Positions 37,546-53,950 of a stretch of DNA of 64,000 nt are shown here, piece after piece; position 1 is the first letter of the stretch, and each line of letters opens with the position of its first letter. Location: NCBI GenBank assembly GCA_963809485.1, contig CAWEJX010000012.1, forward strand, positions 224,001 to 288,000. The letters run 5' to 3'. The translations under genes were made by a program, and so were the position numbers. The stretch comes from an uncultured Acidobacteriota bacterium (GTDB lineage Bacteria > Acidobacteriota > UBA6911). The notes under the pieces are model-generated. The model made no database searches. It was not told the origin of the DNA and was given only the letters and a program-made list of their open reading frames with translations.

Positions 37546-38358
37546 ATGAAACGGGAAAGGGATATGAATACAAAATCGAGGGCCAGGCGCAGCGGATCCC
37601 GCAAGCCTGCCTACATTGTGCCTGCGGTGGACAGGGCAGCCCGCATCCTATCATTGCTGCGAAACGAAGGGCGCGCGATGACCATAGCGGAAATCTCCGA
37701 TGCCACCCGATGGCATAAGAGCAGCGTTCACAAGCTGCTGGTGACCTTGCATCACCACATGCTGCTCGATCGCGACGAGGTGACCAAAAGATACTCCCTC
37801 GGGATCGCGCTCTCGGAATATGGAAGGATCGCGTCGAGCCGCTCCGATATCCTGCATGCCGCCAAATCCTTCCTTAAAGCCCTCGTCGATTACAGCGGTG
37901 AAACCGCAGCTTTGGCAGTCCTGCGCGGGACCCAGATGATTATCGTGGACGTGGAGGAGTCCCTGACTCAGCTCCGCGTCTCTCTGACTATGGGCATGCG
38001 CTCTCCGGCGACGGCAACCTCCAACGGCAAGGCGGTTCTCGCCTACCTCCCGGAAAGCCGGGTTAACGAAATCCTGCAGTCGGAAGGGCTCCCTGCGGCG
38101 ACGCCGAATGCGATCACGAAGCTGGGCCCCTACCGTGTGGAACTGGCCGCCATACGCGAGCGTGGCTATGCAACCGATTTCGAAGAGTTCCAGGAAGGGA
38201 TTGTAGGAGTTTCGGCTCCCGTATTCGATTCAACGAATCAGCCTATCGGTGCGCTCTCCGTGGCGGCGCCCGCTTCCAGGATGACGAAGGATAAAATTCG
38301 CAATTGCGGCAAAAAGGTCAAGGAAATGACGGCCCAGCTATCCGCCATGATCCGTTGA
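37546..38358 (+). CDS. IclR family transcriptional regulator
   Basis: VPAVDRAARIL HTH, KSSVHKLL.TL, ATSNGKAVLAY, IRERGYA.D.EE, SAPVFD; start could be 37564. Confidence 0.93.
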   Translation: MKRERDMNTKSRARRSGSRKPAYIVPAVDRAARILSLLRNEGRAMTIAEISDATRWHKSSVHKLLVTLHHHMLLDRDEVTKRYSLGIALSEYGRIASSRSDILHAAKSFLKALVDYSGETAALAVLRGTQMIIVDVEESLTQLRVSLTMGMRSPATATSNGKAVLAYLPESRVNEILQSEGLPAATPNAITKLGPYRVELAAIRERGYATDFEEFQEGIVGVSAPVFDSTNQPIGALSVAAPASRMTKDKIRNCGKKVKEMTAQLSAMIR

Positions 38359-38858: not shown

Positions 38859-39866
38859 TTACGCGGGCTTTTTAGCAGGCGCCTTTTTGTCGGGGCTGTA
38901 GAACGCTCCCGTATCCCTCCGGATCAGGAAGAAAACATAGGGTTTATCCACCTTCTGGGTGATGATGGGAGCATGCGTGTACAATGCCGGGCAGACAACC
39001 ACACAAGGGCTGGTAATATTGTAAACTTCTTCCTCCTTGCCCATATGCAGGTCAATTTGCGCCCCCAGCTGATTCGGATTCCGGGCATCCAGCCCGACAT
39101 AAACCAGGAATTCATCGCCTTCATGAATGTGCGGGTCAAATCCGGGAATGTTATGCCAGTTGCCCAGTCCGGTATAGAACCCCCATGTGAAGTTGACGAT
39201 GAACCCTTCAAGGTCTTTGCTCTTGGGCCATGAAAGCCAGTCCGCGTTTCCCGAACCTATCTTTGTCTGTTCCGGCATCCCTGTGGCGGACATCTTCTTG
39301 ATCAGGCGCCCATATTCGTTTTGGGATGAGCCTGCCCCCGGCTTTTCGGAAAGCTTCGTCTCGGCGTATTCCCCGGCAAGTCCGATGGCATAGTGCGCGA
39401 AGGGCTTCTCGACTTTTTTGGTCACGATCGGGCCGTACGGAAAGTTTTTGGGGATGCATACAATCGAGGGGATGTTGATCACGTGCTTTTCATATTCTTT
39501 GCCCAGGGATATCTCGATCTCCGCTCCCAGGTAGTTCGGGTCTTTGGGCTCCAGGCCTGCAAAAACGAGACAAGTGTCATAAGGGTGCATCTTCGCCGTG
39601 GTTTCGGCGGCGTTCCAGGCGCCGGCCTTACTGTAATAACCAAAAGAAAAATTGGTATTGGTCCCATTCAGATCGTTGCGGTCCATGCGGACAAAATAGT
39701 CGGCATCTCCGGGTCCGCTTTGTCCTACCCTATAAAAGAAGTTATGGAAATAATGCCCATACTTTGCTTCGGCCGCGGTTACCAGGGAACCCAGGGAGCT
39801 CGCCACGGCCAGCCCGGCGGTTCCAACAACCACATCCTTCACAAATTCTCTTCGCGTCGTGCTCAT
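38859..39866 (-). CDS. Tat-exported double-cupin-like protein, type Y copy 1 (335 aa)
   Basis: TTRREFVK signal; two repeats of H.H..D[E].L...G.D.....LG.[EQ]I...G.E.E...I..P.....P....H.P; start at ATG 39866 behind AAGGAG. Confidence 0.8.
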   Translation of the reverse strand: MSTTRREFVKDVVVGTAGLAVASSLGSLVTAAEAKYGHYFHNFFYRVGQSGPGDADYFVRMDRNDLNGTNTNFSFGYYSKAGAWNAAETTAKMHPYDTCLVFAGLEPKDPNYLGAEIEISLGKEYEKHVINIPSIVCIPKNFPYGPIVTKKVEKPFAHYAIGLAGEYAETKLSEKPGAGSSQNEYGRLIKKMSATGMPEQTKIGSGNADWLSWPKSKDLEGFIVNFTWGFYTGLGNWHNIPGFDPHIHEGDEFLVYVGLDARNPNQLGAQIDLHMGKEEEVYNITSPCVVVCPALYTHAPIITQKVDKPYVFFLIRRDTGAFYSPDKKAPAKKPA

Positions 39867-39969
39867 GCCTGTCTCTCCTTCTGTGACGTGCAGCCGGCCG
39901 CAGGACTCCTGAGACCGGCCAGCAAAATCTGTTGCTTCGCTTAAACTCGATACGTCTCCCAAAACGGGC

Positions 39970-40971
39970 TTATGCCGGATTGATATCCGAGGGATCTCCC
40001 TTATCCAGGCGCACCATGTACATCCCGAATGGCTTTTCCATACTCTTTGTGACTATCGGCCCGTGCTGCATCCCTGCGGGGATGATGACGCACGACGGCA
40101 CGCTGATCGTATGCTTTTCATCCTCGAGCGTGATTTCCACTTCTCCGCCGAGATATTCCGGCCGCTTGTTGTCCAGGCCCGCGAACACCAGGAACTGGTC
40201 GCCCACATGCTTGTGCGGCTTGGCCCCCCAATCGCCGGTGGTTTTGTAAAACCCCCAAGCCCAGTTGACGTTGAAATTCTCCACCTCTTTGCCCCGGATC
40301 CAGGTCAGCGAGTCCGCATTGCCCGGCCCCGTCTTGGCCTGTATGTCTTTCCGGAAAACCAGCTTCTTGTACAGCGGGTCATATTTATGCCCGTCCGTGG
40401 TGTCGAGCGTGCTCCTCTGTGGCATTACGTCCGTCTTGTGGTTGGGCTCGAGGCTGAGAACGATAAACCCGAAAGCCTTGTCGCACTTCAGCGTGATTTG
40501 TGGGCAGTGCACGACGTTCTTGGGATAACAGCATGCGGTCGGGACGCGGAAAACGTGCTTTTCGTATTCCTTTCCCGCATCGTGTTCGATCTCGGCGCCC
40601 AGGTATTCCGGCTTTTCCGGATCAAATCCAATGTAAATGAGGAGTTCGTCACCGTCGGGGTGCACATGCCCGCCGGTTTCCCTGGTGTGCCAATCGCCGA
40701 TTTTGGTGTAATACCCGAAAGAGAAATTGACGTTCTTGTTTTCCAACTCGACTCCCTTGGGCCACCAGAGCAGGTCGGCATTCCCCGGTCCCACGACCTT
40801 GAACATCTCCTTCATGTTGTAGACGATTTTCTTGATCAGGTGTCCGTGTTTTGTTTCCTGCGCGGCTGCCGGCCATGCGCCCAGAGAGCTCACCACGGCC
40901 GCCCCCGCAGCGCCAAGCGCCGTATCTTTGACAAACTCCCTCCGAGTCGTGCTTTTATCGGCAAAATTCAT
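39970..40971 (-). CDS. Tat-exported double-cupin-like protein, type X (333 aa)
   Basis: TTRREFVK signal with AAAQ cleavage; HVHPDGDE..VHCP and HKHVGDQ..QHGP His motifs. Confidence 0.8.
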   Translation of the reverse strand: MNFADKSTTRREFVKDTALGAAGAAVVSSLGAWPAAAQETKHGHLIKKIVYNMKEMFKVVGPGNADLLWWPKGVELENKNVNFSFGYYTKIGDWHTRETGGHVHPDGDELLIYIGFDPEKPEYLGAEIEHDAGKEYEKHVFRVPTACCYPKNVVHCPQITLKCDKAFGFIVLSLEPNHKTDVMPQRSTLDTTDGHKYDPLYKKLVFRKDIQAKTGPGNADSLTWIRGKEVENFNVNWAWGFYKTTGDWGAKPHKHVGDQFLVFAGLDNKRPEYLGGEVEITLEDEKHTISVPSCVIIPAGMQHGPIVTKSMEKPFGMYMVRLDKGDPSDINPA

Positions 40972-41027: not shown

Positions 41028-41330
41028 TCAAAGGGCCGCCCCGGATTGGTGATTGCCGGGCGTCCGGACATACTGCTTGAACCCGGGCGCTGAAACCGTC
41101 AGGCTGTAAACGCCTGCGGGCAACTGGGCGAGCGTGAAGTTTCCGGTCGAGCTGCTGGCCACCTTGTATACGGCGGCAGTCGCCACGTTTTTGGCCTCAA
41201 CGGAAGCGTTGGGTATCATCGCGCCGGCGGGATCGGCAACCGTACCCGTGATCGTTCCACGGTCGCTCTGGGCAAATGCAATCCCCAAAAAAAGAATCGT
41301 GCAGGTGAGTATTTTTAACATCGAACGCAT
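41028..41330 (-). pseudogene. Truncated TonB-dependent receptor (first ~90 aa only), copy A
   Basis: MRSMLKIL..AFAQSDRGTITGTVADPAGA..GFKQYVRT matches the N-termini of copies B and C, then unrelated sequence and a stop. Confidence 0.85.
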
Positions 41331-41484
41331 GAGATATGTCCTCCTGTGGTTAAATAAACCTTTACGGCCCATCTGAGGCCGCGAGATTTTGAGTGCACCA
41401 GGCACCGCTCGTTCCTGGCAAACAGGCCACTTTGCCAAAAGTGAACATCCACAAGCTGCCGCCCGAATCCTGCATTCAGGCTGA

Positions 41485-41595
41485 AATATCTCCAAGTTCG
41501 TCGTTTGCATCCGGCGCCGGAGCAAGGGAGCTCAAGTCAGCGGGTGCGAAAATCTTCCACAAGGAGTTCCACAGCGGACCCTTGCCGGCACCGGA
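41485..41595 (-). promoter_or_regulatory. Conserved leader element upstream of TonB receptor A (candidate cis-regulatory RNA)
   Basis: Invariant CGTCGTTTGCATCCGGC shared with 47361..47474 and 51702..51814; complementary ends. Confidence 0.6.
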
Positions 41596-42251
41596 CATTT
41601 TGTTGGTGCCAGTATAGTACGCTTTTTTTATTTTGCAACATCAAGAATTCTCTTCAGAGACTGGCATCTCTAATCAGCTACTATCCGGAAAGCAATCCTG
41701 ACTTTTTAGGGTGAGGCTCCCGGGAAGGAATCCCATGGGGACGACTGACAGAGCAACGGTCGAGAACCGCAAAGCGGCCGAAGCCCGGGATTTGCCCGAT
41801 CGCCCATAAGCGTCCGGGCCGGTCTCGGCCCGGCTTTTTGCACATGCATCGGAGAACCCGTAATAACACAGACGGAGGAGTGCCTCAAGAATAGGATTTT
41901 GCATTTAACGGGAGTTCCGGCAGGGCGGGGGAAATACAGCCGGGGAGGCGCGAAGCGAAACACCGGCAATATTCGACGGATCAGGGAGCCCTGGAAGGCG
42001 AAAGATCCGGTTCCGCCGCTCTTCCAGGTTTTTCCCTTGCTGATTTATACCGGGCCTCCGGCCTTTGATAACCGGAGGCCCATTCCGGCAAGCAAGAATG
42101 ATTCTCCGGCGGCCCTTCGGGCCTCATTCGCGAATAAGGGGCCCGAATAAAGGGCCAGCCGCTTGGTTTTGCTGCTGCATGTTCGGGCCATCCTTGCCCC
42201 AGAACAAGGATACTGCAATTACGCCCGCTTTTAAGACAATCTCTGCCGCAA

Positions 42252-43259
42252 TTACGCGGGTTTCTTCGCAGGAGTTTGTTTGTTGGGGCTGTACCGCTCT
42301 CCCGTATCCCTGCGAATCAGGAAAAATCCATACGTCTTGTCCACCTTCTTGGTAATGACCGGAGCATGCGTGAAAAGCGCCGGACAGACAATAACCTGCG
42401 GCACGGTGACTATATGGCTTTCCTCTTCCTTGCCCACATGCTGATCGACCAAGGCGCCCAAATCGTAGGGCTTTTTCGCGTCCAGGCTCACGAAAACCAG
42501 AAATTCATCGCCTTCGTGTTCGTGCGGATCAAACCCCGGGATGTCATGCCAGTTGCCCAGGCCGGAGTAGAATCCCCACGTGAAATTAACGATGAAGCCC
42601 TCCAGGTCTTTGGCCTTAGGCCACGAAAGCCAGTCTGCATTGCCCGGACCGATTTTGTTAGCTCCCGGCTGCCCCGTCGCCGACATTTTCTTGATCAGAT
42701 GCGCATACTTGCTCCCGGATGCAGGGGCTGCAGCCTTTCCGGCAAACTTCGACACAGCATAATCCCTTGCAAGGCCGATGTCATAATGCGCGAAAGCTTT
42801 TTCGGCCTTTTTGGTCGTGATCTGGCCATAGGGAAAGTTTTTGGGAATACAAACGAACGAGGGGACATTAATCACGTGCTTTTCAAATTCCGGTCCAAGC
42901 ACCAGCTCGATTTCGGCGCCCAGATAATTCGGATCCTTGGGTTCAAGGCCCGCAAAAACCAGGCAGGTGTCGTACGGATGGGTGCGGGCCCCGGTTTCGG
43001 CGGAATTCCAGGCTCCTACTTTGCTGTAGTAACCGAAGGAAAAATTGGTCTCCCTGTCGTTCATTTCCTTTCCACCAATCCGGCAGACATAGTCGGCAGC
43101 TCCCGGCCCGCCTTCTCCCTTCTTATAGACAAATTTATGCACCAAATGGGCATACTTCAGGTCAGCCGCGGCCGCCCAGGGGCCCAGCCGATTCGCAACC
43201 GCCAATCCGCCGGCTCCAACAAATACTTCCTTTACAAATTCTCTTCGCGTTGTGCTCAT
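42252..43259 (-). CDS. Tat-exported double-cupin-like protein, type Y copy 2 (335 aa)
   Basis: Same length as and collinear with 38859..39866; HPYDTC and PHEHEGDEF..THAP motifs. Confidence 0.8.
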   Translation of the reverse strand: MSTTRREFVKEVFVGAGGLAVANRLGPWAAAADLKYAHLVHKFVYKKGEGGPGAADYVCRIGGKEMNDRETNFSFGYYSKVGAWNSAETGARTHPYDTCLVFAGLEPKDPNYLGAEIELVLGPEFEKHVINVPSFVCIPKNFPYGQITTKKAEKAFAHYDIGLARDYAVSKFAGKAAAPASGSKYAHLIKKMSATGQPGANKIGPGNADWLSWPKAKDLEGFIVNFTWGFYSGLGNWHDIPGFDPHEHEGDEFLVFVSLDAKKPYDLGALVDQHVGKEEESHIVTVPQVIVCPALFTHAPVITKKVDKTYGFFLIRRDTGERYSPNKQTPAKKPA

Positions 43260-43360
43260 GCCTGTATCTCCTTATATGAGGTGCAGCCGGTCGCGGTACT
43301 TCAGCGGCCGGCCCATAGTATCCGCCGTTTCGCCCGAATCTGCTTATGCGTCGCTCCGGC

Positions 43361-43538
43361 CTATGCTGGATTAATGTCGGACGCATCTCCCTTATCTAGA
43401 CGTACCATATACATTCCGAAAGGTTTTTCAACGCTTTTCGTCACGATCTGCCCGTGCTGCATTCCCGCGGGGAGGATGACGCACGAGGGTACGTTGAACG
43501 TATGCTTCTCGTCCTCGAGCGTGATTTCCAGTTCGCCT
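43361..43538 (-). pseudogene. C-terminal remnant of a type X double-cupin gene
   Basis: GELEITLEDEKHTFNVPSCVILPAGMQHG..MVRLDKGDASDINPA is nearly identical to the end of 39970..40971; the first ~275 codons are missing. Confidence 0.85.
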
Positions 43539-43541
43539 TGG

Positions 43542-43579
43542 ATGGCATCCCCGGAATCCGTCCATCCCGGGGATGCCAT
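43542..43579 (-). terminator. GC-rich hairpin after TonB receptor B
   Basis: ATGGCATCCCCGG-loop-CCGGGGATGCCAT. Confidence 0.6.
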
Positions 43580-43599
43580 GGCTCCACTATCAGGTCCTA

Positions 43600-46500
43600 C
43601 TAAAATTGAATTCTCGCAACTATCTGACCTGTACGGCCGATGCTGCCCGGACCCGTGTTGATATATCCGAAGCCCGTGATCGGTTTGCCGTTCGCATCGA
43701 CTCTCTGCGTGGCCTGAGCATTCGTTGCAGTCGGATTGGGCACTCGAATCCGGTTGAACACGTTGTTCAGTTCAATCCGGATGTTAAGGGTGACTTGCTC
43801 CACTATCGGGAACGTCCTGCCCAGGCTCATGTTTTCGAGCGGAGCGCGCCGATACCGGTAATCGCTCAGGTATGCGGCCGTGGTGCCGAACTGGCCGGCA
43901 GCCGGATCCGACCAGGCTTTCGGGTTCAGCACGAATTCCTTGTTCGGGTCGAAGCAGCTCGTGCAGTTCAGGTCCGTCGTGAAATACGGCTCCCCCTCCA
44001 CACGGTTGGCGAACGAGCCCGTGCCGAACGGTACAGCCCCAAAAGAGAAGTTCATGGGGGTGCTGAGCTTCAACAAGGTGCCGATCTGGTTTTGCGCATA
44101 GGGCACGCGGATCGGCGCTCCGCTGGTGTACGTCAGCATGACACCGTACGTCCAGTCACGGATTATCCACGACAACGTCTTGTTGGTTTCCAGCGCCGGA
44201 AGGCGATAGTTCGCCGCGACCACAAGGCGATGCGGCCGCGAGTAGCCGGACAGATACTTGTTAACATTCCGGTCCAGCGAGTTGTTGATGGAAGTATTGA
44301 GAGCGAAGAAGGCGGCGTTATCCGTCTCCCCCGTTCCCAGGGTGAGCTCCTTCGCCCAGGTATACGCGGCCGTCAGATCCAGACCATACGAATACCGCTT
44401 GGTCACCTTCGCCTGCAGCGAGTCGTACCAGGTGTTGCCCTGCGGATTCCACAAAACATTGATCCCCGTGAATTGCGGGAACGGCCGCAGTGCCTGGTTC
44501 ACCGTAAGCGCTTTCGAAAATGCCGGATAGGGCGGTGTGCCGAATCCCCTGGAGATTGCGGTCTGCGAGTCCAGGCGAGCAAGCAACAGGTCCCTATCCG
44601 CTTTAAGATTGATGTCCAGGTGGTTCTTGGCAAGGATTTCGGGCGTAAGCCGGTTGGGATCGTTGATCGCGGCCGCCTGCCACCACACCCCGCGGTTGCC
44701 CACGTAGGCGGCTTCCACCGCCAGGTTCGTCGTGAGCTGGTACTGCAGCCCGATACTCCACATCATGATCCTGGGCGGACGCCCCGCGTTGTGATCAAAC
44801 ATGGTGAGGAACGACGTCGGCGTCGATGGAATCGCCGGAAATTGCCCCGGATCGAAGTTCGGCCATGTCGGTTGAATCGGCACGCCATCCTTCAGCAGCA
44901 TCGCCGGCGTGCCATACGCCGGAGCCGCAAACGGAACGTTGGATCCAAAGCGCATCGACCAGAAATTGTTCGGCGCCGTCTGCCCGTAGGAATATCCCCA
45001 ACCGCCGCGGAATACGGCCTTGGGAGTGATTTGATACGCAACCCCAAGCCGGGGACCAAAGGCGTACTTATAGACATTCGCAAACGGACCCGACGTCTGC
45101 TCAAATATCACGCCCCCGGGCAGGTTGCCCACTGCAGGATTCGGCACTGCCGCCGAGATGCTCGGAACCCGGCCGTGCTGTTCCTTCAGGTAGCCCTGGT
45201 AATCCCAGCGCAAGCCGTAGTCCAGCGTCAATTTGCGCGTCACTTTCCACGTGTCCTGCGCGAACAGCGCCCAGGCGCTTTTGCCCATCCGGGTTGCTGT
45301 CTGCGGACCGATAGCTCCCGTGTCCACCGCGCCCAGCATGAAGCTGGCCCACGGGAATCCCACCGTGCCCCCGAAAAGATTCTGGCCCTGCGTCGAGGGA
45401 AGCCCCGACTCAATCGCGTTGAAGGCAAAATAGCCGTTGGAGGGCCAATCGAGATACATCGGGTTGCCCGCCAGGCGCAACTCCACACCGAACTTGTACG
45501 TGTGGTTCTGTTTGACCCAGGTCAGGCTGGCGTTGGTTGTGGGTTTCTCCTCATATAAATGGTACAGCTGATTGGCGCCCATCCCCCCTGTCGGATTGCC
45601 GTAGCCCCCAAATGGCGAAAAGATGCCTGTGATGGTGGGGAAAAAGTCTACGTAGGTCCCCTTCAGCCCGAGCTCCTCTTCAGTTTTGAATTCAGGCTGA
45701 GTTTGTGCCCACAGGGTGTGCATGTAGCCCGCGCCAAAATGCAGCAGCAGTGTCGGACTGAGAGTCTGATCATAGTTCAGGCGAAAAGTATGCGAATTCT
45801 GGGGGTTGTCGTACGCCATGCTGCCCGGGAAATCCAGCCCGTCGTTCATCTGCTTGCGGCCGATGGTAAAGGCGTACGACCAGTAGCCGGACAGCTTGAT
45901 TTTGGGGCTGAAATAGTGATCGATTTTGACCGCCGGAATGGTCTTGGCAGAAGGGATAAACTGGTTGGGATAGAAGTTGTTGGTTATGGCCGAGTTGGTC
46001 GGCATCGGCACCAGCGCCTGAATCTTTGCCGATACCGGATCAAATCGTTCTACCGGAATCCGATTGTTTGGAAACGGATCGCGAACTCTCAGGCCATTGA
46101 CGGTTGTTTCTGTGGCCGGATCGTAGATCGCGTTTTCCCAGATGGGGACCGGGTTGCCCTGGGTATCCAGGGCGCAGTTGGGATTTGTCGCCGGACAGAG
46201 ATTCCGTCCCGTCAGGATTGCGCTGAAATCCCCATTCCGCATCGCCACAGTGGGAATCGTGTTCGGCGTGATGTAGCTTACGGACGTGCGGTACTGCTCG
46301 AAATTGAAAAAGAAGAAGGTCTTGTCCCGGCCGTCATAGATGCCGGGCAGGTAGACGGGCCCTCCAAGGGTAAAACCGTAATCGTTCTTGCGGTCGCGCG
46401 GCTTTTGGTTGATGTATCCCCGGCTCGCATTCAGCGCCTCGTTCACCCAATATTCGTAGGCGCTTCCGTGAAGGGCGTTGGTGCCTGATTTGATGGCTGC

Positions 46501-47211
46501 GTTCATCACCCCACCGCCCGCCTGCCCGAATTCGGCCGCGAAATTGCTGGTCTGAATCGCAAACTCATCAATAGCGTCCACGCTTGGCTGAGCCACGTAT
46601 TGAAACCCGCTGTCGATGCCCAGGTTGGCATCCTGGCCCTCAATCCGCAGAGTCTGCGTGCCCGCCGGAGTCCCCTGCATGCGGATGCTGGTGCTGTTCG
46701 CGGACCCGCTCGCCGACAGGCCGGGAACCAGGTCTGCGGCAGCATAGGGAGAGCGCATACCGCCTCCGACCGCCAGAATAGGCAGTTCGTTCAGGCGTTG
46801 GGATGTGACGGTATGACTCAGGTCGCCGCTTTCCGTCCTCAGCAGCGGGGCGTCGGCATTGACCGTGACGGTTTCGGTGATGTTTCCTACCTCGAGCGCG
46901 ACATCAACGCGCAGGGTCTGCGCGACCAGCACCGTGATGCCCGTTCGGACGTACTGCTTGAATCCTTGCGCCGAGACGGATATCTGGTAGCTGCCGGCCG
47001 GCAGCTGGGCAAGGGTGTAATTGCCCGTGGACGTGCTTTCCACCTGGTATAAAGCACCCGTCTCGGAATTCTTGGCATCAATCCTGGCACCCGGTATAAC
47101 GGCTCCTGCGGGGTCCGCGATCGTGCCCGTGATTGTGCCTCGGTCGCTCTGGGCGAACGCCAATCCGCCCAGGAGCAGCAAACATGTGAGTGTTATCAAC
47201 ATCGAGCGCAT
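43600..47211 (-). CDS. Oar-type TonB-dependent receptor, copy B (1203 aa)
   Basis: Signal, carboxypeptidase-regulatory-like domain, PSVDAIDEF.IQTSNFAAEFG, FAQDTWKVTRKLTLDYGLRWD, FGPRLGVAY, C-terminal GQIVARIQF. Confidence 0.93.
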   Translation of the reverse strand: MRSMLITLTCLLLLGGLAFAQSDRGTITGTIADPAGAVIPGARIDAKNSETGALYQVESTSTGNYTLAQLPAGSYQISVSAQGFKQYVRTGITVLVAQTLRVDVALEVGNITETVTVNADAPLLRTESGDLSHTVTSQRLNELPILAVGGGMRSPYAAADLVPGLSASGSANSTSIRMQGTPAGTQTLRIEGQDANLGIDSGFQYVAQPSVDAIDEFAIQTSNFAAEFGQAGGGVMNAAIKSGTNALHGSAYEYWVNEALNASRGYINQKPRDRKNDYGFTLGGPVYLPGIYDGRDKTFFFFNFEQYRTSVSYITPNTIPTVAMRNGDFSAILTGRNLCPATNPNCALDTQGNPVPIWENAIYDPATETTVNGLRVRDPFPNNRIPVERFDPVSAKIQALVPMPTNSAITNNFYPNQFIPSAKTIPAVKIDHYFSPKIKLSGYWSYAFTIGRKQMNDGLDFPGSMAYDNPQNSHTFRLNYDQTLSPTLLLHFGAGYMHTLWAQTQPEFKTEEELGLKGTYVDFFPTITGIFSPFGGYGNPTGGMGANQLYHLYEEKPTTNASLTWVKQNHTYKFGVELRLAGNPMYLDWPSNGYFAFNAIESGLPSTQGQNLFGGTVGFPWASFMLGAVDTGAIGPQTATRMGKSAWALFAQDTWKVTRKLTLDYGLRWDYQGYLKEQHGRVPSISAAVPNPAVGNLPGGVIFEQTSGPFANVYKYAFGPRLGVAYQITPKAVFRGGWGYSYGQTAPNNFWSMRFGSNVPFAAPAYGTPAMLLKDGVPIQPTWPNFDPGQFPAIPSTPTSFLTMFDHNAGRPPRIMMWSIGLQYQLTTNLAVEAAYVGNRGVWWQAAAINDPNRLTPEILAKNHLDINLKADRDLLLARLDSQTAISRGFGTPPYPAFSKALTVNQALRPFPQFTGINVLWNPQGNTWYDSLQAKVTKRYSYGLDLTAAYTWAKELTLGTGETDNAAFFALNTSINNSLDRNVNKYLSGYSRPHRLVVAANYRLPALETNKTLSWIIRDWTYGVMLTYTSGAPIRVPYAQNQIGTLLKLSTPMNFSFGAVPFGTGSFANRVEGEPYFTTDLNCTSCFDPNKEFVLNPKAWSDPAAGQFGTTAAYLSDYRYRRAPLENMSLGRTFPIVEQVTLNIRIELNNVFNRIRVPNPTATNAQATQRVDANGKPITGFGYINTGPGSIGRTGQIVARIQF

Positions 47212-47360
47212 GAGCTCTATCCTCCTGTGTGAGTGAACCTGTACAACCCATCTGAGGCCGCGCGATCTATGGCGAGTCGGGCGCCTCTGGCTTCAGCCGT
47301 ATGGGCCAAATCTTCGTTGACAAGTCAAATGCCGTCACTGGAATCCGGCATTCATGAAGC

Positions 47361-47474
47361 AATATTTCTCAATTACGTCGTTTGCATCCGGCTGCCTGAG
47401 TGAGGGCGCTGAAGTGATCTGGTGCAAACATCTTCACAAGCAGCTCCGCAGCACCGCATATACCGCCGCCGGAT
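47361..47474 (-). promoter_or_regulatory. Conserved leader element upstream of TonB receptor B
   Basis: Same invariant 17-mer; ATCCGGC/GCCGGAT complementary ends. Confidence 0.6.
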
Positions 47475-47873
47475 TAAAAAGAAACCGAGCAATATCATAT
47501 CCTGTAATATTTTGGATTAGCAAGGAATCTTTGGTGAGACCCGAATTTCTTCTGTGAGACTGGCTATTTCGATACATGCCGCCGGGCGAATATTTCCCAA
47601 GCCATAATTGAGGCAGTCTGTGCCGCATTCGATGCCTGGCTGGAAAGCGCGGTGTTTTCTAATCGATCGCAGCTGGAAGGCGTGGCTTTGGTCCGCCCCG
47701 CAGAAGGCGTATAGGAAGGTCCCGCTGGGGCCTGTCAGGCCGGAAAAACCCTGCGGCCTTGAGCATCGAAGCCGCCGAACGCGTAGCCGCGCACCTGATC
47801 CCAGGCCGGCCTTTCAAGGCCGGCCTGGGATTGATTCGAGCAATGCGTCGCCTCAGCACGGAATCAGCCGCCA

Positions 47874-47910
47874 TCCTCGCCCCGGAATCAAAAAGATTCC
47901 GGGGCGAGGA
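47874..47910 (-). terminator. GC-rich hairpin after TonB receptor C
   Basis: TCCTCGCCCCGGAATC-AAAAA-GATTCCGGGGCGAGGA; a second hairpin lies at about 47799..47830. Confidence 0.6.
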
Positions 47911-47934
47911 CGGCCTTTGCGGCTTTCGTTCACA

Positions 47935-50900
47935 TCAGAACTGAATCCGTGCAACTATCTGGCCTGTACGGCCGACACTGCCCGGACCCGTGTTGATATA
48001 TCCGAAGCCCGTGATCGGTTTGCCGTTCGCGTCGACTCTCTGCGTGGCCTGAGCATTCGTTGCAGTCGGATTGGGCACTCGGATCCGGTTGAACACGTTG
48101 TTGAGTTCAATCCGGATATTAAGCGTGACTTGCTCCACTATCGGGAACGTCCTGCCCAGGCTCATGTTCTCGAGCGGAGCGCGCCGATACCGGTAATCGC
48201 TCAGGTATGCGGCCGTGGTGCCGAACTGGCCGGCAGCCGGATCCGACCAGGCTTTCGGATTCAGCACGAATTCCTTGTTCGGATCGAAGCAGCTGGTGCA
48301 GTTCAGGTCCGTCGTAAAATACGGCTCCCCCTCCACACGGTTGGCAAACGAGCCCGTGCCGAACGGTACGGCCCCAAAAGAGAAGTTCATGGGAGTGCTG
48401 AGCTTCAACAGGGTCCCGATCTGGTTTTGCGCATAGGGCACGCGGATCGGCGCCCCGCTGGTGTATGTCAGCATCACGCCGTACGTCCAGTCGCGGATTA
48501 TCCACGACACCGCCTTGTTGGTTTCCAGCGCCGGCAGTCGATAGTTCGCCGCGACCACAAGGCGATGCGGCCGCGAGTAGCCGGATAGATACTTGTTAAC
48601 ATTCCGGTCCAGCGAGTTGTTGATGGAGGGATTGAGGACGAAGAAAGCAGCGTCTTCGGTCTCTCCCGTGCCCAGGGTGAGCTCCTTCCCCCAAGTGTAC
48701 GCGGCCGTCAGATCCAGACCATAGGAATACCGCTTGGTCACCTTCGCCTGCAGCGAGTCGTACCAGGTGTTGCCCTGCGGATTCCACAAAACATTGATCC
48801 CCGTGAATTGCGGGAACGGCCGCAGTGCCTGGTTCACCGTAAGCGCTTTCGAAAATGCCGGATAGGGCGGTGTGCCGAATCCGCGGTTAATGGCAGTCTG
48901 CGAGTCCAGGCGCGAAAGCAACAGGTCCCTGTCCGCTTTAAGATTGATGTCCAGGTGGTTCTTGGCAAGGATTTCGGGCGTAAGCCGGTTGGGATCGTTG
49001 ATCGCGGCCGCCTGCCACCACACCCCGCGGTTGCCCACGTAAGCGGCTTCCACCGCCAGGTTCGTCGTGAGCTGGTACTGCAGCCCGATACTCCACATCA
49101 TGATCCTGGGCGGACGCCCCGCGTTGTGATCAAACATGGTGAGGAACGACGTCGGCGTCGATGGAATCGCCGGGAATTGCCCCGGATCGAAGTTCGGCCA
49201 TGTCGGTTGAATCGGCACGCCATCCTTCAGCAGCATCGCCGGCGTGCCATAGGCCGGAGCCGCAAACGGAACGTTGGATCCAAAGCGCATCGACCAGAAA
49301 TTGTTCGGCGCCGTCTGCCCGTAGGAATATCCCCACCCGCCGCGGAATACGGCCTTGGGAGTGACTTGATAAGCAACCCCGAGCCGGGGACCAAAGGCGT
49401 ACTTATAGACATTCGCAAACGGACCCGACGTCTGCTCAAATATCACACCCCCGGGCAGGTTGCCCACTGCAGGATTCGGCACTGCCGCCGAGATGCTCGG
49501 AACCCGGCCGTGCTGTTCCCGCAGGTAGCCCTGGTAATCCCAGCGCAAGCCGTAGTCCAGAGTCAGTTTGCGCGTCACCTTCCAGGTATCCTGCGCGAAC
49601 AACGCCCAGGCGCTTTTGCCCACCCGGGTTGCTGTCGGCGGACCGATAGCTCCCGTGTCCACCGCGCCCAGCATAAAGCTGGCCCACGGGAATCCCACCG
49701 TGCCTCCGAAAAGATTCTGGCCCTGCGTGGAGGGAAGCCCCGACTCTATCGCATTGAAGGCGAAATAGCCGTTGGAGGGCCAATCGAGATACATCGGGTT
49801 GCCCGCGAGGCGCAACTCCACACCGAACTTGTACGTGTGGTTCTGTTTGACCCAGGTCAGGCTGGCGTTGGTTGTGGGTTTCTCCTCATAGAGATTGTAC
49901 AGCTGGTTGGCGCCCATCCCCCCTGTCGGATTGCCATAGCCCCCAAATGGAGAAAAGATGCCTGTGATGGTGGGGAAAAAGTCCACGTAGGTCCCCTTCA
50001 GCCCAAGCTCCTCTTCAGTTTTGAATTCAGGCTGACTTTGTGCCCATAGGGTGTGCATGTAGCCCGCGCCAAAATGAAGCAGCAGTGTCGGACTGAGAGT
50101 CTGATCATAGTTCAGGCGAAAAGTATGCGACTTCTGAGGGTTGTCGTACGCCATGCTGCCGGGGAAGTCCAGGCCGTCGTTCATCTGCTTGCGGCCGATG
50201 GTAAAGGCGTACGACCAGTAGCCGGACAGCTTGATTTTGGGGCTGAAAAAGTGATCGATCTTGACTGCCGGAATGGTCTTGGCAGAAGGGATAAACTGAT
50301 TGGGATAGAAGTTGTTGGTTATGGCCGAGTTGGTCGGCATCGGCACCAGCGCCTGGATCTCCGCCGATACCGGATCAAATCGCTCTACCGGAATCCGGTT
50401 GTTTGGAAACGGATCGCGAACTCTCAGGCCATTGACGGTTGTTTCCGTGGCAGGATCGTAGATCGCGTTTTCCCAGATGGGAACCGGATTGCCCTTGGTA
50501 TCCAGAGCGCAATTGGGATTTGCCGGCGGGCAGAGATTTCGTCCCGTCAGGATTGCGCTGAAATCCCCATTTCGCATTGCCACAGTGGGAATCGTGTTCG
50601 GCGTGATGTAGGTCACGGACGTGCGGTACTGTTCGAAATTGAAAAAGAAGAAGGTCTTGTCCCGCCCGTCATAGATGCCGGGAAGGTAGATGGGCCCTCC
50701 AAGGGTGAAACCGTAATCGTTTTTGCGGTCGCGGGGCTTTTGGTTGATGTATGCCCGGTTGGCATTAAACGCTTCATTTACAAAATAATCGTAGGCGCTT
50801 CCGTGGAGAGCGTTGGTGCCTGATTTTATGGCTGCGTTCATGACGCCGCCGCCCGCCTGCCCGAATTCGGCGGCGAAATTGCTGGTCTGAATCGCAAACT

Positions 50901-51546
50901 CATCAATAGCGTCCACACTCGGCTGCGCCACATATTGAAATCCGCTGTCGATGCCCAGGTTTGCATCCTGACCCTCAATCCTCAGAGTCTGCGTGCCCGC
51001 CGGAGTCCCCTGCAAGCGGATGCTGGTACTGTTCGCGGATCCGCTCGCCGACAGGCCGGGAACCAGGTCCGCGGCAGCGTATGGAGAGCGCATACCGCCT
51101 CCGACTGCCAGGATGGGCAGTTCGTTCAGGCGTTGAGAGGTGACGGTATGGCTCAGGTCGCCGCTCTCCGTCCTCAGCAACGGTGCGTCGGCATTGACCG
51201 TGACGGTTTCGGTGATGTTTCCTACCTCGAGCGCAACATCAACGCGCAGGGTTTGCGCCACGAGCACCGTGATGCCCGTTCGGACGTACTGCTTGAATCC
51301 TGATGCCGAAACGGATATCTGATAGCTGCCGGCCGGCAGCTGGGCAAGGGTGTAATTGCCCGTGGACGTGCTTTCTACCTGGTATAAAGCGCCGGTCTGG
51401 GAATTCTTGGCCTCGATCTTGGCGCCCGGTATCACCGCTCCTGCGGGATCCGCGATCGTGCCCGTGATTGTGCCTCGGTCGCTCTGGGCGAACGCCAATC
51501 CGCCCAGCATCAGCAAACATGTGAGTGCTATCAACACTGAACGCAT
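47935..51546 (-). CDS. Oar-type TonB-dependent receptor, copy C (1203 aa)
   Basis: Start reset to ATG 51546 (GGAGG RBS), giving the same length as copy B; near-identical protein. Confidence 0.93.
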   Translation of the reverse strand: MRSVLIALTCLLMLGGLAFAQSDRGTITGTIADPAGAVIPGAKIEAKNSQTGALYQVESTSTGNYTLAQLPAGSYQISVSASGFKQYVRTGITVLVAQTLRVDVALEVGNITETVTVNADAPLLRTESGDLSHTVTSQRLNELPILAVGGGMRSPYAAADLVPGLSASGSANSTSIRLQGTPAGTQTLRIEGQDANLGIDSGFQYVAQPSVDAIDEFAIQTSNFAAEFGQAGGGVMNAAIKSGTNALHGSAYDYFVNEAFNANRAYINQKPRDRKNDYGFTLGGPIYLPGIYDGRDKTFFFFNFEQYRTSVTYITPNTIPTVAMRNGDFSAILTGRNLCPPANPNCALDTKGNPVPIWENAIYDPATETTVNGLRVRDPFPNNRIPVERFDPVSAEIQALVPMPTNSAITNNFYPNQFIPSAKTIPAVKIDHFFSPKIKLSGYWSYAFTIGRKQMNDGLDFPGSMAYDNPQKSHTFRLNYDQTLSPTLLLHFGAGYMHTLWAQSQPEFKTEEELGLKGTYVDFFPTITGIFSPFGGYGNPTGGMGANQLYNLYEEKPTTNASLTWVKQNHTYKFGVELRLAGNPMYLDWPSNGYFAFNAIESGLPSTQGQNLFGGTVGFPWASFMLGAVDTGAIGPPTATRVGKSAWALFAQDTWKVTRKLTLDYGLRWDYQGYLREQHGRVPSISAAVPNPAVGNLPGGVIFEQTSGPFANVYKYAFGPRLGVAYQVTPKAVFRGGWGYSYGQTAPNNFWSMRFGSNVPFAAPAYGTPAMLLKDGVPIQPTWPNFDPGQFPAIPSTPTSFLTMFDHNAGRPPRIMMWSIGLQYQLTTNLAVEAAYVGNRGVWWQAAAINDPNRLTPEILAKNHLDINLKADRDLLLSRLDSQTAINRGFGTPPYPAFSKALTVNQALRPFPQFTGINVLWNPQGNTWYDSLQAKVTKRYSYGLDLTAAYTWGKELTLGTGETEDAAFFVLNPSINNSLDRNVNKYLSGYSRPHRLVVAANYRLPALETNKAVSWIIRDWTYGVMLTYTSGAPIRVPYAQNQIGTLLKLSTPMNFSFGAVPFGTGSFANRVEGEPYFTTDLNCTSCFDPNKEFVLNPKAWSDPAAGQFGTTAAYLSDYRYRRAPLENMSLGRTFPIVEQVTLNIRIELNNVFNRIRVPNPTATNAQATQRVDANGKPITGFGYINTGPGSVGRTGQIVARIQF

Positions 51547-51701
51547 GAGACCTATCCTCCTAGAAGATAATTGGGCTTGTGCGACCCATCCGAGGCTTCG
51601 GGCTTTATGGCACATCGGGCGCCGTCCCGTTCCAGCAGACAGGCCACTTCTCCAACAGTGATAATATTGAAGCCGCCGCTCGAATCCGGTATTCGGGCGG
51701 G

Positions 51702-51814
51702 AATATCTCTCAATTACGTCGTTTGCATCCGGCAGCCTGAACATGGACACCAAAGTCAGCAGGTGCAAAAGCTTCAACGAAGAGCTTCGCAGCAGGATCT
51801 TGACGGCGCCGGAT
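51702..51814 (-). promoter_or_regulatory. Conserved leader element upstream of TonB receptor C
   Basis: Same invariant 17-mer and complementary ends; TATACT -10-like hexamer just upstream at 51832..51837. Confidence 0.6.
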
Positions 51815-52189
51815 TTTAATCGGTTGCAGCCAGTATAAGATACTTTATAAATATTTGGCAAATATAAAGTACTCCCTTATGGGATGGGTATTTCATTTTG
51901 GACACTCCACGCATATCGGAAGCTTCTCCTTCTTAGTGCTCGATCTCCGAATTCGACTGCTGTTCGAGATGCCTTGCCATTGTCACTTTGTAAGAGCTTA
52001 TTTTGTTTTCCTTAGGTTGGGTGCGGCAGCTATAAGGCAATCCCCGCGATGCTATTTATTCAGGATGGAAAATCCGGCAGAATAGAGGGGCGCCACCGAT
52101 CGTTCCAATGTGCGTGGGTTACCACCAGGATATCGGCAGAAATGGAGCATTTTCATCCTGGCGCCGATATGTAACTCCATACTGAGGCT

Positions 52190-53950
52190 ATGCGTTCTAT
52201 GAATGCTTGCTGGAGGATCGACAGGACCCGATTGAGGATTTTTGCACTATTCGCAGCCTTGGCTTGCCTTCCCGTCAGCGCGGGGCCGGTGACGCAGAGG
52301 ATACGCTATCGGATCGACGCCGCGGTCGACTACGAACTGCTGACGCTGAAGGGGTCCGCCGAGGTAAGCATTCCGAACGAAGGGCAGGAAACTCTGCGCG
52401 ATGCTGTATTTTTCCTCTATGCCAATTCCAAGGGCATCGTCGGCGACGGGCGGCGGAAACACATAGCTGTCGACGGAGTAAGGCTTGGCACGGAGGCCCT
52501 GCCGTTTTCGCTGGATGGCCCGATACTGCGCGTGACGCTGAATACGCCTCAAAGCCGCTCCTTTGCTCTGCGAATCGATTATCACGGCGTCGTGCCGCGA
52601 TCTTCCGGCAACGGCGCGGGATTGACGGGCGCCCTCGGAGGTTTACTCGGCTCCATGAACGGCAACGCAGCGTCCGGGAACAGCGACTTCGGCCTCTATT
52701 GCTACAGCGATGGGATACTCAGCCTTGGATCCTTCTGGTACCCGCAGCTGGCCGTGCGAAAAAACGGGAAATGGGTGGATGAGGCGCCGGCGGGGCTGGG
52801 CGATGTAGCATACTCGGAAGCCAGCGATTTCGATGTCAGCCTTGCGGTCCCGGCGGACGTCAAGGTCATTACCTCAGGCACCCCATCCGGGACAGGCCGC
52901 TATATCGCCTCGAATGTGCGCGACTTCGCGGTCCTCATGAGTGAGGACTATGTGTGCAAATCAGCATTCATCGAGGCGTCCGGCAAAAACATAACCGTCG
53001 AAGCGTGCGCCACGCGCGGAAATGCGGCGCAGGTCGACCGCTCGCTGGAGGTGGCAGGCCGGGCCCTGCAGATTTACTCGGGCCGCTTCGGGGAATACCC
53101 CTACAAAAACTTCAAGGTGGTGGAAGGAACACTCACCGGCGGGGCAGGCGGAATGGAGTTCTCAGGCATGACGGCCATCGCCCCGATGCTCTACACGGAC
53201 TGGAGCACGCAACTCCGCGAGCTGACAGGGATGCTGGGTAACCTGGGCGGTCTGGATAAGCTGCTCGGCGGCCTTAATGCCGGGCAAGATGGCGGAGCTT
53301 CCAGGCAGCAGGCGGACTCCACGCCCCAGAAAACCGCCGGGGATCTTTTCGGCTCAATTCTGGGCCAGAAAAATGCCCTCGATTCGCTGCTGGAAATGAC
53401 CATCGCCCATGAGGCTGCGCACCAGTGGTGGGCGATGGCCGTGGGGAGCGACAGCGTGCGCGAGCCGTTTGTTGACGAGAGCTTGACCAACTATTCGGCG
53501 ATACTCTATTTTGAAGACCGTTACGGCAGAGAAGCCGCTCAGAAGATGATCGACACACACCTGAAGATGCCATACTCGATGGCGCGCCTGATGGGACTCC
53601 CCGATGCGCCGGCCAACCTCCCGACATCCGCATACGCCAGCAACCTTCAATACAGCGCTATCGTTTATGGAAAGGGTGCGCTTTATTACGACGCTTTGAG
53701 GCGCGCTGCCGGCGACGAGGCATTTTTCTCTGCTCTGCGCGCCTATTACCAAAAGTATCGCGGTCATCTGGCGGGGCCGCGAAGCTTTCTCGACCTTGTC
53801 AACACAAAGGCGCCTGCGGCGGGCGCCGGAGCATTATACCGGCACTGGATTGAGGAGACAAACGGGGACCAGGACATCTCCGGGCCGGGAATTATCGGGA
53901 TTCCGGGAATCCTTGGCGAATTATTGAGGAAAAGCAGCCCGCCGCAATAG
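52190..53950 (+). CDS. M1 family (gluzincin) aminopeptidase-like protein
   Basis: GGMEF, HEAAHQWW followed by DESL, YGKGA; signal-like N-terminus. Confidence 0.87.
   Translation: MRSMNACWRIDRTRLRIFALFAALACLPVSAGPVTQRIRYRIDAAVDYELLTLKGSAEVSIPNEGQETLRDAVFFLYANSKGIVGDGRRKHIAVDGVRLGTEALPFSLDGPILRVTLNTPQSRSFALRIDYHGVVPRSSGNGAGLTGALGGLLGSMNGNAASGNSDFGLYCYSDGILSLGSFWYPQLAVRKNGKWVDEAPAGLGDVAYSEASDFDVSLAVPADVKVITSGTPSGTGRYIASNVRDFAVLMSEDYVCKSAFIEASGKNITVEACATRGNAAQVDRSLEVAGRALQIYSGRFGEYPYKNFKVVEGTLTGGAGGMEFSGMTAIAPMLYTDWSTQLRELTGMLGNLGGLDKLLGGLNAGQDGGASRQQADSTPQKTAGDLFGSILGQKNALDSLLEMTIAHEAAHQWWAMAVGSDSVREPFVDESLTNYSAILYFEDRYGREAAQKMIDTHLKMPYSMARLMGLPDAPANLPTSAYASNLQYSAIVYGKGALYYDALRRAAGDEAFFSALRAYYQKYRGHLAGPRSFLDLVNTKAPAAGAGALYRHWIEETNGDQDISGPGIIGIPGILGELLRKSSPPQ

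Follow-up and report, generated by a model that had tools for sequence, protein, structure and literature searches.

The stretch of DNA analysed here, a 64-kb window of contig CAWEJX010000012.1 from an uncultured member of the Acidobacteriota, carries on its minus strand three paralogous genes for TonB-dependent receptors, A, B and C, with start codons at 41330, 47211 and 51546. A preliminary description of the window had singled out, ahead of these genes, a conserved and apparently structured block of about 110 nt, and had proposed it as a candidate riboswitch or other cis-regulatory RNA. We find that the block belongs to a real, lineage-restricted structured leader with one supported helix and one conserved tract, and on comparative grounds we put at roughly 0.5 the probability that this leader acts in cis, after transcription, in the control of translation or mRNA stability. 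The parts of the three leaders and the receptor genes are listed below in the direction of transcription (SD, Shine-Dalgarno sequence; P1, the helix that closes the 5' hairpin).

51832..51861, minus strand: promoter-like site of copy C, TTGCCA-18-TATACT; the homologous site is kept in relatives
51727..51814, minus strand: 5' hairpin of copy C; P1 5' arm 51814..51805, P1 3' arm 51737..51727, 1-nt bulge at 51734
51698..51726, minus strand: conserved tract after P1 in copy C, GCAAACGACG, then GAGAGATATTCC; best-conserved part of the leader
51547..51697, minus strand: rest of leader C, with a short hairpin around GAAT..ATTC, further hairpins, and SD GGAGGA at 51560..51555
47935..51546, minus strand: receptor C, 1203 aa, CarboxypepD_reg + OMP_b-brl_4 + TonB_dep_Rec_b-barrel
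47494..47523, minus strand: promoter-like site of copy B, TTGCTA-18-TATGAT
47386..47474, minus strand: 5' hairpin of copy B; P1 5' arm 47474..47465, P1 3' arm 47396..47386
47357..47385, minus strand: conserved tract after P1 in copy B
47212..47356, minus strand: rest of leader B, SD at 47225..47220
43600..47211, minus strand: receptor B, 1203 aa, CarboxypepD_reg + OMP_b-brl_4 + TonB_dep_Rec_b-barrel
41611..41638, minus strand: promoter-like site of copy A, TTGCAA-16-TATACT
41509..41596, minus strand: 5' hairpin of copy A; P1 5' arm 41596..41587, P1 3' arm 41518..41509, stem prolonged by CAAGGG/CCCTTG
41480..41508, minus strand: conserved tract after P1 in copy A
41331..41479, minus strand: rest of leader A, SD at 41344..41339
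41028..41330, minus strand: receptor A, truncated to about 100 codons of the N-terminal part

With the start codons at these positions, the blocks lie 155-265 (A), 150-263 (B) and 156-268 nt (C) upstream of their genes, in agreement with the 150-270 nt of the preliminary description. The 17-mer that had been called invariant has exactly three exact occurrences (41499-41515, 47376-47392 and 51717-51733); at up to three mismatches it has four matches in the window against 0.44 expected, a number that none of 100 shuffles reaches. The cores GCUG.G.A.C, GAAG and GCACC are likewise found in A, B and C, and the pairing of the block ends, described for every copy, is returned by RNAalifold as a closing helix of 10 bp. 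The block itself thus stands, and it is its boundary that has to be redrawn, as conservation spans the entire leader of about 275 nt down to the start codon. The three leaders align over their whole 270-280 nt, back to the promoter-like site, with a mean column identity of 79%; upstream of the promoter the flanks cannot be aligned, their identity of 0.44-0.47 being taken as the background of the method. Conservation is strongest in the 3' arm of P1 and in the approximately 45 nt downstream of the block: among the pairs of A, B and C, identities come to 10/11 in the P1 3' arm, 21-25/27 in the tract and 39-45/68 in the hairpin interior.

A promoter scan found one sigma-70-like site on the minus strand at the homologous place in each window copy, and a -35/-10-like pair lies just upstream in all eight leader sequences assembled here from the window and its relatives. 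The TATACT hexamers reported 15-20 nt upstream of the blocks in A and C are the -10 elements of these sites; the site of B had been overlooked because its -10 element reads TATGAT. Judged by the -10 boxes, the hairpin would begin about 9-14 nt past the start of transcription. A hint that leader C is transcribed comes from an RNA-library contig of a relative, which covers 51519-51711, the start codon and the last 165 nt of the leader included, and over these 193 nt shows 12 differences and 2 gaps. This hint is weak, because DNA can occur in RNA libraries and contigs cannot reveal transcript ends; moreover, the public contigs came from relatives, and the parts that they leave uncovered, leaders A and B included, are uninformative. 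Just ahead of the SD at 51572-51588 (minus strand), and in copy C only, there is a terminator-like hairpin with a U-rich tail.

The window's own genome has these three copies only. A covariance model of the hairpin and conserved tract (R1), together with BLAST, located five copies elsewhere: two in genome G006, one each in G001 and G020, and one on the metagenome contig L055. The genomes with an R1 match belong to a single genus and, the window's genome counted, make up 4 of the 51 genomes of the order, and a core model (R2) matches the same four genomes only, 4 of the 137 in the class. From a species-level genome collection a pattern scan retrieved 29 stretches, of which only two, both at loci already known, score with R1, the other 27 reaching at most 23.5 bits. 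A partial R1 match of 22 bits in G014 was not counted as a member. The element precedes an intact receptor at one locus of G006 (G006:C20), and in G001 it stands before a receptor remnant that is followed by a gene for a bicupin, a type of protein also encoded next to the window's receptors; the receptor of G020 has ACG as its start codon. Around homologs of the bicupin genes on metagenome contigs the element is present at 1 of 34 loci. The listings and abstract openings returned by a full-text literature search describe no leader RNA of these receptors.

The comparative case for an RNA structure is made by P1. When seven of the sequences are aligned independently with MAFFT, RNAalifold predicts the closing helix only, and three of its 10 pairs are changed on both sides. 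In a model-fitted alignment of all eight, 72 of the 80 cells are paired (90%), with five cells changed on both sides and further changes that involve G-U pairs; if the partner strand is slid by 1-3 columns, the paired fraction falls to 15-39%. The preliminary description had proposed covariation as a check, and in a shuffle test of covariation the helix scores 0.282 against 0.190 +/- 0.026, a value that none of 500 shuffles attains. By our reading of the alignment, the double changes represent at least three events in two lineages. Since the alignment leans to the model and the sequences are kin, we regard this covariation as moderate evidence for a real helix, and not as proof. Six G-U cells occur in the eight-sequence alignment, and the mismatches listed for seven sequences include a single C-A; this balance favours folding of the sense-strand RNA over an inverted repeat in the DNA. 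Beyond P1 the extension of the stem differs from sequence to sequence: at fixed columns this extension (P2) is paired at 10/10 positions in L016, 9/10 in L055, 7/10 in A and 5/10 in C; going by single-sequence folds, B and L020 have an extension of their own in a shifted register only, and in G020 the 5' arm pairs with another partner. The stability of the hairpin, expressed as z against 200 mononucleotide shuffles, is -2.37 in A, -2.35 in L009, -2.23 in L012, -2.16 in L055, -1.64 in L008 and -0.91 in L007; the full leader A gives -2.59.

Directly after P1 comes the conserved tract, for which a partner is predicted at the far end of the leader. RNAalifold predicts a 16-bp helix between it and the segment that comprises SD, spacer and start codon; across six leaders 90-96% of the cells are paired, and in ensembles of the full leaders the expected number of pairs between tract and ribosome site is 17.2 in L012, 13.6 in A, 9.9 in C and 7.6 in B. 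Taken as an isolated duplex and ranked against random genome windows, the pairing stands out in A (percentile 0.015) and L012 (0.04). The ribosome-site sequence is not peculiar to the R1 set: other receptor paralogs have it too, including some with neither an R1 nor an R2 leader.

The tract also connects these leaders to a wider family. A motif search detected a related stretch in the leaders of other receptors, about 150-165 nt upstream of the start codon, and this distance holds in 11 of 12 leaders. The stretch consists of a GCAA element, a GGGATAT-like block and, in most members, a stem with a CCCTGG-containing loop, and it is the GAGAGAUAUUCC-like block with the hairpin that follows it that forms the main portion common to paralogous receptor leaders. 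In the window's genome such leaders occur on C4 (starts 44091 and 48435, minus strand), C5 (20062, minus strand) and C6 (352420, plus strand), and G006 has two more, with G006:C44 among the loci. RNAalifold predicted no structure on a 12-sequence alignment of this core, the one that R2 models, and two of the paralog leaders gave only noise against Rfam in E-value mode. The C4 locus is a tandem array too, with a short receptor copy at its head.

These observations lead us to an explanation in which a TonB-dependent receptor and Tat-exported bicupin proteins would be encoded by one operon, whose mRNA would begin with an untranslated leader of about 275 nt, the block being the first domain of that leader. 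Transcription would proceed from the sigma-70-like promoter approximately 10-25 nt upstream of the block, and at the head of the leader would stand a long irregular hairpin closed by P1. From the 3' arm of this helix the RNA would continue directly into the tract, GCAAACGACG followed by the GAGAGAUAUUCC-like block, and this tract would be the working site: it may pair with the ribosome-binding site and the start codon and so hold translation down, or it may bind a trans-acting factor. The role of the 5' hairpin would be to set the accessibility of the tract or to shield the mRNA at its 5' end. That the tract masks the ribosome-binding site is, taken on its own, in our estimate a tentative proposal and rather more likely wrong than right, with a site for a trans-acting factor or a 5' stabiliser as the alternatives to it. 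Of the 16 predicted pairs seven never vary and four vary on one side only, so the helix between tract and SD lacks covariation; as the pairing is mostly invariant and its energy ordinary in four of the six leaders, we commit ourselves to a cis-acting post-transcriptional leader and to nothing narrower.

Two kinds of known leader offer partial parallels. The rpoS-type leaders control translation by long-range sequestration of the SD, and the present leaders resemble them in having a long 5' untranslated region (UTR) whose conserved upstream segment is complementary to the region of the SD and AUG, with several hairpins enclosed by the predicted pairing. They differ in that the genome search for a complementary partner in trans, a short-BLAST with the tract, gave chance 12-14-mers only, and in that the pairing energy is ordinary in four of the six leaders. 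The mRNAs of outer-membrane proteins may also carry stabilising stem-loops in their 5' UTRs, as in the ompA type; here too the gene encodes an outer-membrane protein, and a long leader headed by a stem-loop has single-stranded conserved sequence before the ribosome-binding site. The hairpin is, however, much longer in our case (88-89 nt), and it lies about 9-14 nt from the inferred start and not at the very 5' end.

Several results weigh against a cis-acting RNA of this kind. 1) The comparison is confined to eight sequences from one sub-clade, whose kinship inflates the shuffle tests. 2) Hairpin stability does not exceed that of shuffles in B (z -0.21) or in C (z +0.27), and the full leader C has a z of -0.24, with 79 of 200 shuffles folding equally well. 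3) A second hairpin, the one after the tract, drawn by hand, shows no covariation beyond that of shuffles. 4) The ensembles of L008 and L007 contain 1.0 and 0.0 expected pairs between tract and ribosome site, and the invariant or one-sided pairs noted above dominate the predicted helix. 5) Ranked among random genome windows, the isolated duplex is unexceptional in four of six leaders (percentiles 0.13 in C, 0.22 in L008, 0.38 in B and 0.45 in L007), and the energy of pairing with the SD is for most copies not better than that of shuffles or random windows. 6) Leaders B and C are 0.64 identical, below the 0.80-0.86 of four-fold degenerate sites, and B and its ortholog L008 have leaders 0.85 identical against 0.81 at four-fold sites, no better than neutral.

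The last of these points bears on whether there is any dedicated function at all, as the similarity could be a relic of tandem duplication that recombination has since reshuffled, with the pairing incidental. The B-C and B-L008 comparisons would agree with such a history, as would the shuffle-like folding of B and C and the narrow distribution. A and B/C, on the other hand, are saturated at the four-fold sites of their receptors (identity 0.31-0.32, n ~42) and still have leaders that are 0.67-0.70 identical, so that the neutral-drift check put forward in the preliminary description goes in favour of conservation for these pairs and not for B with C or with L008. Selection on the leader thus receives a mixed answer, which simple pairwise rates cannot settle. 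The stronger argument, in our reading of the alignments, is the block pattern, with an invariant 17-mer and tract, a preserved P1 and free spacers: the 17-nt run is invariant in three leaders that differ at about a third of their sites, the tract and P1 persist in comparisons of B/C with L012 and L007, where the receptors have a four-fold identity of 0.47-0.48 and are near saturation, P1 has compensatory changes, and the flanks upstream of the promoter are unalignable. We accordingly give a functionless origin little weight. In their coding regions B and C are very close, the proteins being 97% identical and 638 four-fold sites 0.86 identical, and their leaders (47212-47487 and 51547-51825) have the 0.64 given above; leader B is closest to its G006 ortholog (0.85). 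That the leaders are less conserved than the silent sites points to a mosaic history or gene conversion, leader and coding sequence having different histories; the likely cause is that B and C underwent gene conversion in their coding regions while each tandem copy kept its own leader.

Other explanations accept a function and place it elsewhere. The hairpin might be the aptamer of a riboswitch for a small molecule or an ion, for example a metal, the ligand stabilising P1 and so altering the availability of the tract for the ribosome-binding site. TonB-dependent receptors are familiar riboswitch targets, as in the case of btuB and cobalamin, and cobalamin (RF00174) as well as TPP (RF00059) riboswitches occur before receptor genes; our leaders resemble these in their position before such a gene and in a closing helix next to the expression region. 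A long leader at what would be the 5' end of the transcript, the covariation of P1, interior blocks conserved in A, B, C and L008 in spite of saturated synonymous sites between A and B/C, a P1 3' arm directly followed by the SD- and AUG-complementary tract, and associated genes of the importer type all agree with this idea. A riboswitch should nonetheless keep its core nucleotides across all members, and here the interior motifs are common only to A, B, C and L008, the ortholog of B; the interiors of L007, L009, L012 and L055, four of the eight members, are unrelated to those of the window copies. Helix covariation is found for P1 only, neither a junction nor an internal loop shows evident conservation, the domains of B and C fold like shuffles, a promoter and terminator scan of A, B and C detected no terminator 3' of the hairpin, and the element occurs in 4 of the 137 genomes of the class. 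The preliminary description had held that the block does not look like the cobalamin, TPP or c-di-GMP aptamers, and the comparison with Rfam 15 bears this out and extends it: none of the 4227 models has a match in the window at its gathering score, and in E-value mode leader A has only PreQ1-III (13 bits against a threshold of 63, E 4.1) and leader C nothing, leader B being covered by the gathering run only. A riboswitch is on this evidence unlikely, and the aptamer interpretation of the 110-nt block is the part of the original proposal that finds no support. Its more general part, a cis-regulatory leader RNA, is retained, with the compensatory changes in the closing helix, the adjoining promoter-like site and the lack of an Rfam family to recommend it.

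The conserved sequences might instead be read as DNA, with the inverted repeat and the 17-mer bound by a transcription factor downstream of the promoter, a candidate for this factor being the IclR-type regulator whose gene, at 37546-38358, closes the cluster. The P1 arms do amount to an inverted repeat, conservation of the tract is high without an obvious fold, and the related block in the paralog leaders is a perfect 10-bp palindrome. The arms are, however, some 70 nt apart, and G-U changes of the kind counted above agree with pairing in RNA rather than with a pair of identical half-sites; there is no palindrome in the tract itself, and the promoter scan found no sigma-70-like site there. An operator of this sort seems to us improbable. 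The palindrome, GGATATATCC, was considered as the operator of a regulon and rejected: it has 14 occurrences in the genome against 4.3 expected, and those outside the leaders lie mostly within reading frames. A sigma-54 or extracytoplasmic-function (ECF) promoter at the tract was also discarded, the spacing being wrong as judged by eye. A third suggestion turns on the AUG within the 17-mer, which in B, C, L008 and L055 (4 of 8) opens a mini-ORF (open reading frame) of four codons and a stop whose translation could control that of the receptor, and both of the L055 changes are at third positions of codons. The mini-ORF is absent or different in the other four, since in A the same frame runs on into that of the receptor, L012 lacks the start, and the frames of L007 and L009 are long and unrelated; the start also lies within the P1 stem. 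A search of the three sense frames of the eight leaders found no small leader ORF, signal peptide or arrest motif of the RAPP/RGPP type, the marks of a CruR/CutF-type arrest-peptide leader, nor is any reading frame conserved among the eight, an N-terminal extension of the receptor included, stops interrupting the frames of most copies. Control by a leader peptide is accordingly very improbable.

A bolder version of the cis-acting leader may be imagined, in which these leaders are a lineage-specific class of ribo-regulators for an uptake operon of receptor and Tat-bicupin, with diverged hairpin sensors, for a manganese-type metal or for the imported substrate, that gate an RBS-masking tract. 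We consider it a long shot; if it were true, the paralogous receptors whose leaders have a related tract would together make up a single regulon under RNA control. Receptors of this type are numerous in Acidobacteria, and their regulation is almost wholly unexplored. A post-transcriptional leader would provide a concrete and testable handle on such control in an uncultured lineage. The tandem receptor copies, nearly identical in coding sequence and distinct in their leaders, hint that they differ mainly in regulation. With so narrow a distribution, the general importance of the element is for now limited.

The remaining genes of the cluster lie downstream of the receptors, as follows.

43361..43579, minus strand: 72-aa fragment of another bicupin paralog, after receptor B
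42252..43259, minus strand: Tat-signal bicupin paralog, downstream of receptor B
39970..40971, minus strand: Tat-signal bicupin protein of 333 aa, downstream of leader A
38859..39962, minus strand: second Tat-signal paralog of the bicupin family, 3' of the 333-aa gene

The 333-aa protein has a twin-arginine signal and a confident structure model (pLDDT 83.6), which Foldseek matches best to the bicupins oxalate decarboxylase (1j58) and MncA (2vqa), with E ~1e-12, TM ~0.5 and 9-13% identity. Pfam has no match for the three paralogous Tat-signal proteins (39970-40971, 38859-39962 and 42252-43259). A link of the receptor/bicupin operon to a metal or a small acid is possible, though this is speculation from the structural matches. 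The bicupin has 238 metagenome relatives, and among the matches listed all are hypothetical or nameless except for one with a cupin-like label. The cluster has been rearranged, as receptor A is shortened and a fragment of a bicupin gene lies behind receptor B; G001 (L016 1764-2384) is alike in this respect, with a leader, a receptor remnant with internal deletions and then a bicupin gene. The IclR-family gene at 37546-38358 (plus strand) is convergent at the cluster end, and its top NCBIfam match is BhcR, at 173 bits under a cut-off of 350. At the other end, a gene with a Peptidase_M1 domain (52190-53950, plus strand) is divergent from leader C.

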